Of a stretch of 54,273 bases of DNA, positions 12,392 through 12,437 are shown piece after piece; position 1 is the stretch's first letter; each line of letters starts with the position of its first letter. The notes below the pieces were generated by a model. It did no database searches and was not told the DNA's origin. It was given only the letters and a program-made list of their open reading frames with translations. Position numbers and translations under genes: made by a program. Origin of the DNA: an uncultured Candidatus Saccharibacteria bacterium (GTDB lineage Bacteria > Patescibacteriota > Minisyncoccia > Phycocordibacterales > CAIZLB01); contig CAYQJB010000001.1 in the NCBI GenBank assembly GCA_964417855.1, forward strand, positions 358,709 to 412,981, read 5' to 3'.

Positions 12392-12437
12392 CGATTTTTA
12401 AGCGTAAAAATCGTGCCAAAATCAGCAGATTTTGGCA
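12392..12437. repeat. conserved tandem double-hairpin intergenic element, copy 1
   Basis: CGATTTTTA-agcg-TAAAAATCG followed by TGCCAAAATC-agca-GATTTTGGCA; near-identical copy at 21243-21288. Confidence 0.7.

Follow-up and report, generated by a model that had tools for sequence, protein, structure and literature searches.

The stretch of DNA analysed here (54,273 nucleotides, hereafter the window) matches the MAG GCA_037127815.1 and carries two copies of a 46-nt element, which we call E. The first (E1, 12392..12437, + strand) lies between rpmE and prfA and the second (E2, 21243..21288, + strand) between pheS and pheT, and both were delimited by sequence, RNA fold and a covariance model. Profile matches agree with the gene neighbours named in the initial annotation (L31, RF1, PheS and PheT), the RF1 assignment being a best match to prfA at a score under the curated cut-off. 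Both copies lie where that annotation had placed them and are identical at 44 of 46 positions, as it had implied. In E1 a 9-bp stem with the loop AGCG (hairpin 1, 12392-12413, + strand) is abutted by a 10-bp stem with the loop AGCA (hairpin 2, 12414-12437, + strand), so that the element reads CGATTTTTA-AGCG-TAAAAATCG and then TGCCAAAATC-AGCA-GATTTTGGCA, and both hairpins are perfect as described. This does not extend to E2, which differs at two positions and not at one: the C-to-T change in hairpin 1 (21243-21264, + strand) does leave a G-U pair, as had been noted, but at the last base an A-to-C change turns the outermost pair of hairpin 2 into a T.C mismatch, so that this hairpin is paired over 21266-21287 (+ strand). 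As RNA, each copy is predicted to fold into two adjacent hairpins, with -20.7 kcal/mol and z = -6.2 for E1 and -17.9 kcal/mol and z = -5.3 for E2. Each half of the element matched the window at E1 and E2 only, with 0 matches in 100 dinucleotide shuffles, and the covariance model, run over the 54 kb with its filters off, scored E1 at 79.9 bits and E2 at 74.4 bits and found no third copy, the best match other than E being an unrelated site at 11 bits. The stems are A/T-rich (about 35% GC for the element) and no T-run follows hairpin 2 on the + strand of either copy, in keeping with the earlier view that neither copy is a simple terminator.

In the window, a TATAAT-like box (often TGnTATAAT) precedes the ATG of most first genes of transcription units by 6-9 nt, and a Shine-Dalgarno sequence is lacking (starts at 9123, 9738, 12073, 12461, 15539, 16754, 20451, 21330, 27882 and others), which implies leaderless messages and suggests that leaderless mRNAs may be the rule in this genome. 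The TATAAT box of prfA (12446..12451, + strand), assigned by consensus match only, is of this leaderless type; 9 nt separate it from the ATG and 8 nt from the end of E1 on its upstream side. On the other side of E1, between it and the rpmE stop codon, lies the intrinsic terminator of rpmE (12341..12379, + strand), composed of an A-run, a stem and a U-run, with a fold of -23.5 kcal/mol (z = -4.8) and a terminator-tail match in Rfam. It is one of a set of A-run/GC-stem/T-run palindromes that serve as terminators in this genome, the others lying at 16677-16712, 26387-26422 and 45832-45875. We also observed that PheS (20451-21230) is 259 aa long and aligns to the NCBIfam pheS model from model position 67, its usual N-terminal extension being missing here and likewise in all close relatives; that a Thr/Ser-rich coding stretch contains a perfect 69-nt tandem duplication at 46806-46943; and that a very large ORF built of 129-135-nt repeat units (YTSxDxGxTW-like) occupies 48300-54273 and runs past the end of the window. 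GC skew was uninformative as to the direction of replication.

E is also found outside the window. A genome-collection scan in which only the four GATTTT/AAAATC hexamers were fixed and the loops left free gave eight true matches in five uncultured MAGs, one of them labelled Saccharibacteria, and three further matches (L003, L007 and L011) that were removed as chance; the loops were identical in 8/8 of the true ones. A metagenome scan anchored on the loops, with three closing pairs fixed, gave 24 further true loci, in which the invariance of these positions is partly by construction, and three chance matches (L025, L027 and L046) that were likewise removed. A covariance model built from 32 copies finds 36 full-length copies in 33 sources, which are related Patescibacteria MAGs and metagenome contigs, lake samples (Ga0194052-56 and Ga0247840/41) being among their origins, and these include copies outside the search patterns (L028 4796-4849, L044 2134-2187 and L045 1836-1890, among others); degenerate tandem copies are detected as well. 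The named PheS homologues belong to Patescibacteria groups. Copy number is low: the roughly 77 kb scanned from this genome (the window plus L061 and L067) contain two copies, and each species-representative MAG gives one or two matches. Rfam 15 at the gathering threshold returned nothing but a tRNA from the window, an E-value scan of 12330-12470 returned noise only, and 20 loci together with the extended L028 repeat matched no Rfam family. Viral contigs yielded 0 matches to the hairpin-1 19-mer or to the full loop-anchored pattern and only chance matches to the hairpin-2 18-mer within coding DNA, a BLAST of E against plasmids and phages gave no match, and a full-text literature search found no description of it. 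E belongs to a family of low-copy, dispersed, hairpin-forming intergenic repeats from a Patescibacteria clade (candidate phyla radiation, CPR), a family that has apparently not been described so far.

The G-U pair in E2 had been taken as a hint that the RNA structure matters, and the relatives bear this out, since pairing is kept among them by compensatory change. In a MAFFT alignment 94% of cells were paired, against at most 52% in controls with slid partners, and double changes occurred in 8 of the 19 pairs, values that were reached by none of 500 shuffles. A model-fitted alignment, which leans towards the structure, gave 97.9% paired cells and double changes in 10/19 pairs, among them five of the nine in hairpin 1. 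The variants of hairpin 1 include CGAT/ATCG, CGAA/TTCG, CAAT/ATTG, TGAT/ATCA, TAAA/TTTA and TTTGCA/TGCAAA, those of hairpin 2 TGCC/GGCA, CTTC/GAAG, CGTC/GACG, CGCAG/CTGCG and CGTCG/CGACG, and two compensatory double changes separate the E copies that follow pilC in L029 and L031, which are orthologous and have flanks identical at 26 of 30 positions. Templated correction of quasi-palindromes in single-stranded DNA could likewise yield symmetric changes without selection on RNA, and a strand test comparing G-U with A-C mismatches among distinct sequences (8 against 3-4) was weak. At the level of sequence, the orthologous copies at pheS|pheT (three genomes) and at tmk|SDR (two) are identical at 45-46 of 46 positions (98-100%), against 72-89% in the flanking 150 nt of coding DNA, so that E is more conserved than the coding DNA next to it; the orthologous pair at radC|rsmI is lower than the others, at 40/46. 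Across species the AGCG and AGCA loops and the inner stems are near-invariant and the outer stems keep their pairing only. This comparative evidence shows a family under apparent constraint to fold as two abutting stem-loops, with selection on fold and sequence alike. An attenuator-like alternative pairing through the GAUUUU/AAAAUC segments common to both hairpins was considered and dropped, as variants such as L022 do not preserve it.

The position of E relative to genes points in one direction. There are at least 17 contexts, and the upstream gene, where identifiable, lies on the strand of E every time, with a gap from its stop codon or tRNA end to E of mostly -10 to +12 nt. By Pfam the upstream protein genes encode PheS, L31, a phosphoribosyltransferase, T2SSF/PilC, L9, enolase, DnaB, a MurG-type GT28, FtsZ, RadC, thymidylate kinase and inositol monophosphatase; where a tRNA neighbours E it is always tRNA-Gln (ttg or ctg), and E begins 0-2 nt past it. 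In four contexts (L004/L039, L035, L033 and L029/L031) the upstream stop codon even lies inside E, reading GAT TTT TAA or TGA. The downstream gene, by comparison, is 8-250 nt from E and is convergent in L002, L041 and L043, and in many loci promoter-like TGnTATAAT boxes stand between E and the next ATG. The same-strand upstream gene, the tight upstream gap and the downstream promoter boxes together mark E as the tail of the upstream gene and not the head of the downstream one.

Some arrangements around E are of interest in their own right. All clade-B copies are preceded by YAGC, which is the end of tRNA-Gln, and the 5' flanks of clade-A copies are not conserved. Four loci that differ in context (L028, L045, L047 and L048) have in common a 5' extension of E of about 30 nt, GGTTCYAACTTCG-N9-GGCYAGC, which by eye resembles a degenerate 3' half of a tRNA T-arm and acceptor, and copies with this extension may derive from a tRNA-Gln trailer. 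Head-to-tail arrays of two or three partly degenerate copies occur in L044, L040, L031 and L002. In L028, E is included in direct repeats (4585-4845 and 5879-6139, minus strand) that measure about 200 nt or more, bear extra AGCA-loop hairpins, for example GGCGATTC-AGCA-GAATCGCC, and flank a 1.3-kb one-gene segment, and in L045 a tRNA-Gln-E unit and a second E (965-1019 and 1836-1890) bracket the inositol-monophosphatase gene; both arrangements look cassette-like. In L002, from a MAG labelled Saccharibacteria, a 28-nt duplication of a tRNA 3' end (11-39 and 188-216) surrounds a 150-nt hairpin-rich insert immediately 5' of E, and in L001 and L002 hairpin 2 and a 28-nt tail are repeated near the contig ends.

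Both window copies precede translation genes, and on this basis the initial annotation had proposed a shared cis-regulator of such genes and had asked whether other copies precede them too. For the most part they do not: in relatives E follows the 3' end of its upstream gene, and most of its contexts there are non-translation genes. A cis-regulatory RNA or RNase III processing element dedicated to prfA, pheT and the like would fit the conserved fold as well as the two window contexts, but relatives with the same gene order do without E, promoter-like boxes between E and the ATG would put the element outside the prfA and pheT mRNAs, and stems of 9-10 bp are short for RNase III, all of which makes such a role highly improbable. 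E has no specific connection with translation factors, and the link suggested by the window is coincidental.

A second group of explanations would place the function of E at the downstream promoter. One of these holds that E is a double-stranded DNA site, either an operator or an upstream promoter element, through which the leaderless promoter behind it is regulated; a palindromic operator for a dimeric regulator was also among the roles first suggested. E does consist of two dyad-symmetric sites 23 bp apart, and in AT-rich clade-A loci the element ends 8-29 nt upstream of a -10-like box, so that it covers or abuts the -35/UP region, with a -35-like 3' end (TTGGCA, TTGACG or TTGGCC). However, a fixed promoter geometry was rejected, as the distance from E to the -10 box takes values of 8, 13, 18, 29 and 34 nt; the 3' ends of clade-B copies bear no likeness to a -35 box; the downstream genes of several loci are convergent or 120-250 nt off; and it is the upstream junction that is tightly conserved. 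Moreover, symmetric, pairing-preserving double substitutions in both arms would be unexpected for protein half-sites, and we regard a DNA-site role of this kind as quite improbable. The other explanation reads E from the opposite strand, where hairpin 2 is followed by CGAUUUUUA and could serve as a terminator or insulator against divergent or antisense transcription from the AT-rich leaderless promoter downstream. On the minus strand a consensus scan does flag E1 and E2 alike as terminator-like, hairpin 1 has in its 5' arm a T-run that is near-invariant across the family, the promoters of this genome are TATAAT-only boxes close to the ATG, and such a role would account for the fixed orientation and for a site between a stop codon and the next promoter. 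It would need only hairpin 2 and the T-run, though, yet hairpin 1 covaries too, and it does not require the conservation seen in both loops; the U-run begins 3 nt past the stem and is sequestered in hairpin 1, and E is present also in loci whose downstream gene is convergent or lies over 200 nt off. An antisense terminator is accordingly an improbable reading of the family.

How E came to lie at its two sites in the window can be read from relatives that are without it. Among syntenic relatives (L25-SLT-L31-RF1-S2-Ts ... GT2-PheS-PheT-GyrB) the covariance model, with filters off, gave 0 matches to E in 74.7 kb. At rpmE|prfA the insertion point is seen at base resolution: gataagg is followed directly by tataattaaacaaa in L050, and in the window by E, atatatac and then tataattaaacaaa. 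The insertion is 54 nt long and falls between the rpmE terminator, which the alignment with L050 and L052 shows to be kept in E-less relatives, and the prfA -10 box; the 8 nt ATATATAC between E1 and that box (12438..12445, + strand) are present only in the E-bearing genome of the L050 comparison and were apparently co-inserted with E1. At pheS|pheT the spacer is 3-10 nt in E-less L050, L051, L052, L053 and L060. By PheS identity the window, L005 and L006 form one clade (88-92%), all with E, and the next relative, L060 (81-86%), is without it, which indicates a single gain at this junction. The insert of about 95 nt consists of a linker of 1-12 nt, E and some 40 nt of A-rich DNA. In the window the linker from the pheS stop codon to E2 (21231..21242, + strand) is 12 nt, the three E-bearing orthologous loci having 1, 9 and 12 nt, and the A-rich spacer from E2 to the pheT ATG (21289..21329, + strand) is 41 nt and is absent from E-less relatives. 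The spacer contains TAAAAT boxes (21312-21323, + strand) 6 nt before the pheT ATG and ends in TAAAAT-ACTAAA-ATG, the same architecture as the other leaderless promoters of the genome, and these boxes likely constitute a new leaderless promoter of pheT. Both window copies are thus secondary insertions, one behind rpmE and one behind pheS. Comparison with the empty sites gave no target-site duplication at either rpmE|prfA (gataagg|tataat) or pheS|pheT, and a 9-nt repeat on either side of the pheS|pheT insert of the window, TTAAAATAC, was rejected as a candidate, since it lies within low-complexity DNA and has no counterpart in L005 or L006. In the rpmE-prfA spacer of the syntenic relative L063 (420-500, minus strand) we observed a GC-rich perfect palindrome with a stem of about 28 bp, GGAGTCAGACCCTCCCCGACTTATCCACA..., at the exact spot of E; related GGGGTCAG motifs occur in a palindrome of the window (41592-41625) and directly 5' of E in L006 (3635-3643). 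This may be a second palindromic repeat family, with the rpmE-prfA spot as an insertion hot spot.

An element that inserts invites the main rival explanation, that E is a selfish, non-autonomous mobile element moved by single-stranded DNA hairpin transposition, as in REP/RAYT systems or IS200/IS605 derivatives, and has no host function. Pairing would then be kept for the mobilising enzyme, and the orientation would result from strand-specific insertion together with the purging of harmful insertions. The lineage-specific insertions in the window speak for it, as do the head-to-tail arrays, the four contexts in which E furnishes the stop codon of the upstream gene, the YAGC before every clade-B copy, the tRNA-T-arm-like 5' extension common to four loci, the one-gene segments between E-containing repeats in L028 and L045, the different palindrome at the same spot in L063, and the fact that paralogues within one lineage are often identical (L022/L043/L047; both L028 copies). 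In addition, the population, in which the flanking proteins recur on 17-19 contigs, includes a strain variant (L056) with an IS200/IS605-type Y1 transposase gene (12547-13200); the gene lies beside the tRNA corresponding to window 16598-16670, on a contig whose end has adapter-like sequence. The GC-rich hairpins flanking this transposase are unrelated to E, however, which speaks against it as the mobiliser. No Y1 or RAYT gene was found in the window or in the E-bearing loci, and tblastn revealed none beyond L056 in about 0.5 Mb of fetched loci. Against a selfish origin also stand the very low copy number, the lack of target-site duplications and terminal inverted repeats at the two filled-versus-empty comparisons, the absence of E from the viral, plasmid and phage collections searched, and the sense orientation in all of the at least 17 contexts. 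The near-identity of orthologous copies between flanks that have diverged by 11-28% resembles purifying selection and not recent spread. We therefore consider a purely selfish element to be possible, though on the unlikely side.

The explanation that we favour, and to which we give an even chance, is that E works in the transcript of the upstream gene as a double stem-loop at or near its 3' end, probably with a loop-reading factor involved. On the sense strand E would form a 3'-UTR or intercistronic double hairpin that might define or protect the 3' end, as an exonuclease barrier, a processing site or an aid to termination; since it lacks a U-tract, unaided termination at E is unlikely. Such a factor would recognise the AGCG and AGCA loops, which are near-invariant, together with the inner stems, and the downstream genes would start from leaderless promoters of their own, one of which pheT apparently gained in the E-bearing clade. 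There is precedent in Stenotrophomonas, where a transcript can be stabilised by one or two SMAG REP units that follow its gene (PMC3184786). E1 fits this less easily, as it lies downstream of a strong intrinsic terminator and would be transcribed by read-through only; this copy may be non-functional, or E may function at the DNA level.

A more specific version, which we regard as rather unlikely, has E serve as the cis signal for a dedicated factor, specific for both sequence and structure, that marks transcript boundaries in these leaderless, Shine-Dalgarno-poor CPR genomes. E would then act as a factor-dependent 3'-end or punctuation signal behind tRNA-Gln and protein genes, with a logic like that of tRNA punctuation, and a dedicated factor would explain why loops and inner stems are near-invariant and outer stems keep only their pairing. 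Possible partners would be an expanded family of NYN-domain nucleases or a termination protein. NYN genes do occur near E, at 450 nt from E1, after the L040 array and about 0.9 kb away in L024/L026. At least four paralogues lie in the window (6382-7143, 11268-11945 and 42498-43271 on the minus strand and 32954-33451 on the plus strand) and further ones at 6001-6627 and 12126-12627 of L067, another contig of the same MAG. The family (PF01936, LabA/DUF88) has 2818 homologues at an E-value of at most 1e-20, many of them on 1-3-kb contigs and the named ones from CPR, and E was found neither at the orthologous NYN locus L063 nor at the paralogue loci L064-L068. Given a family ubiquitous in CPR, at least six paralogues here and NYN loci without E, the association between the two is not significant.

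How transcripts are delimited and processed in bacteria of the candidate phyla radiation, whose genomes are tiny and whose genes are tightly packed, is poorly understood. An element of 46 nt that different species share in near-identical form, whose two stems both covary and which always follows the 3' end of a gene closely offers a concrete handle on CPR transcript ends. Even if E were merely selfish, it would still be a hairpin element that splits pheS and pheT, an essential pair that is normally translationally coupled, the split apparently being followed by the gain of a new pheT promoter. For annotation, E supplies a covariance model for a motif that is absent from Rfam.

Among known systems, several share parts of this picture. 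E is not a MITE, as its ends are not inverted copies of each other and no target-site duplication was found, nor an integron attC site: attC sites are single long imperfect hairpins that carry R''/R' core sites (GTTRRRY) and follow promoterless cassette genes near an integrase, whereas E is two separate perfect hairpins without a GTTRRRY core, whose neighbours are essential housekeeping genes and tRNA-Gln. Like an intrinsic terminator it is a stable hairpin structure directly behind a gene in fixed orientation, but it has no U-tract, it keeps its sequence and loops from locus to locus and from species to species, and the AGCA and AGCG loops occur in E only and not in the terminators of this genome. 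PATEs are miniature derivatives of IS200/IS605 elements, mobilised as single-stranded DNA by Y1/HUH transposases. E resembles the ends of IS200/IS605 elements in its dependence on hairpins, its lack of terminal inverted repeats and target duplication and its strand-specific orientation, and insertion beside a short specific sequence recalls the YAGC before clade-B copies. It is nevertheless far shorter than known PATEs, low-copy and strongly conserved between orthologues, and no cognate transposase was found in the loci searched. SPRITEs are also small dispersed repeats at gene ends, with predicted RNA structures that point to a role in the transcript, but they are about 105 nt long and have a terminator-like hairpin with a U-tract (PMC3184786), against 46 nt and no sense-strand U-tract in E. 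Neisseria REP2 and Borrelia IR-A likewise lack terminal inverted repeats and have two internal stem-loops; REP2, however, is 120-150 bp long with its own promoter, RBS and ATG and lies upstream of ORFs as an expression module (PMC3184786), whereas the conserved core of E is two hairpins only and is tied to the upstream gene.

The closest likeness is to REP sequences, including the SMAG units of Stenotrophomonas maltophilia, and of the four roles first proposed for the element that of a REP-like repeat has come nearest. REPs are short (21-65 bp), hairpin-forming extragenic repeats that lie often at gene 3' ends or between cistrons, single or clustered, with family-specific sequences (PMC3184786). 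The size and location of E agree with this (46 nt, two palindromes, intergenic with a stop codon inside in four contexts). REPs, however, have G+C-rich stems and tens to hundreds of copies per genome and form alternating arrays, whereas E is about one-third GC, low-copy and arrayed head-to-tail. It also has no GTAG-type 5' tetranucleotide, and no RAYT gene was found in the E-bearing loci. E is further set apart by its two hairpins, which differ from each other, have conserved tetraloops and form a fixed pair, by its strictly single orientation relative to the upstream gene, and by its host, a bacterium of the candidate phyla radiation. The best reading of E is thus as a member of the small dispersed structured repeats that is REP-like in kind and not in sequence.
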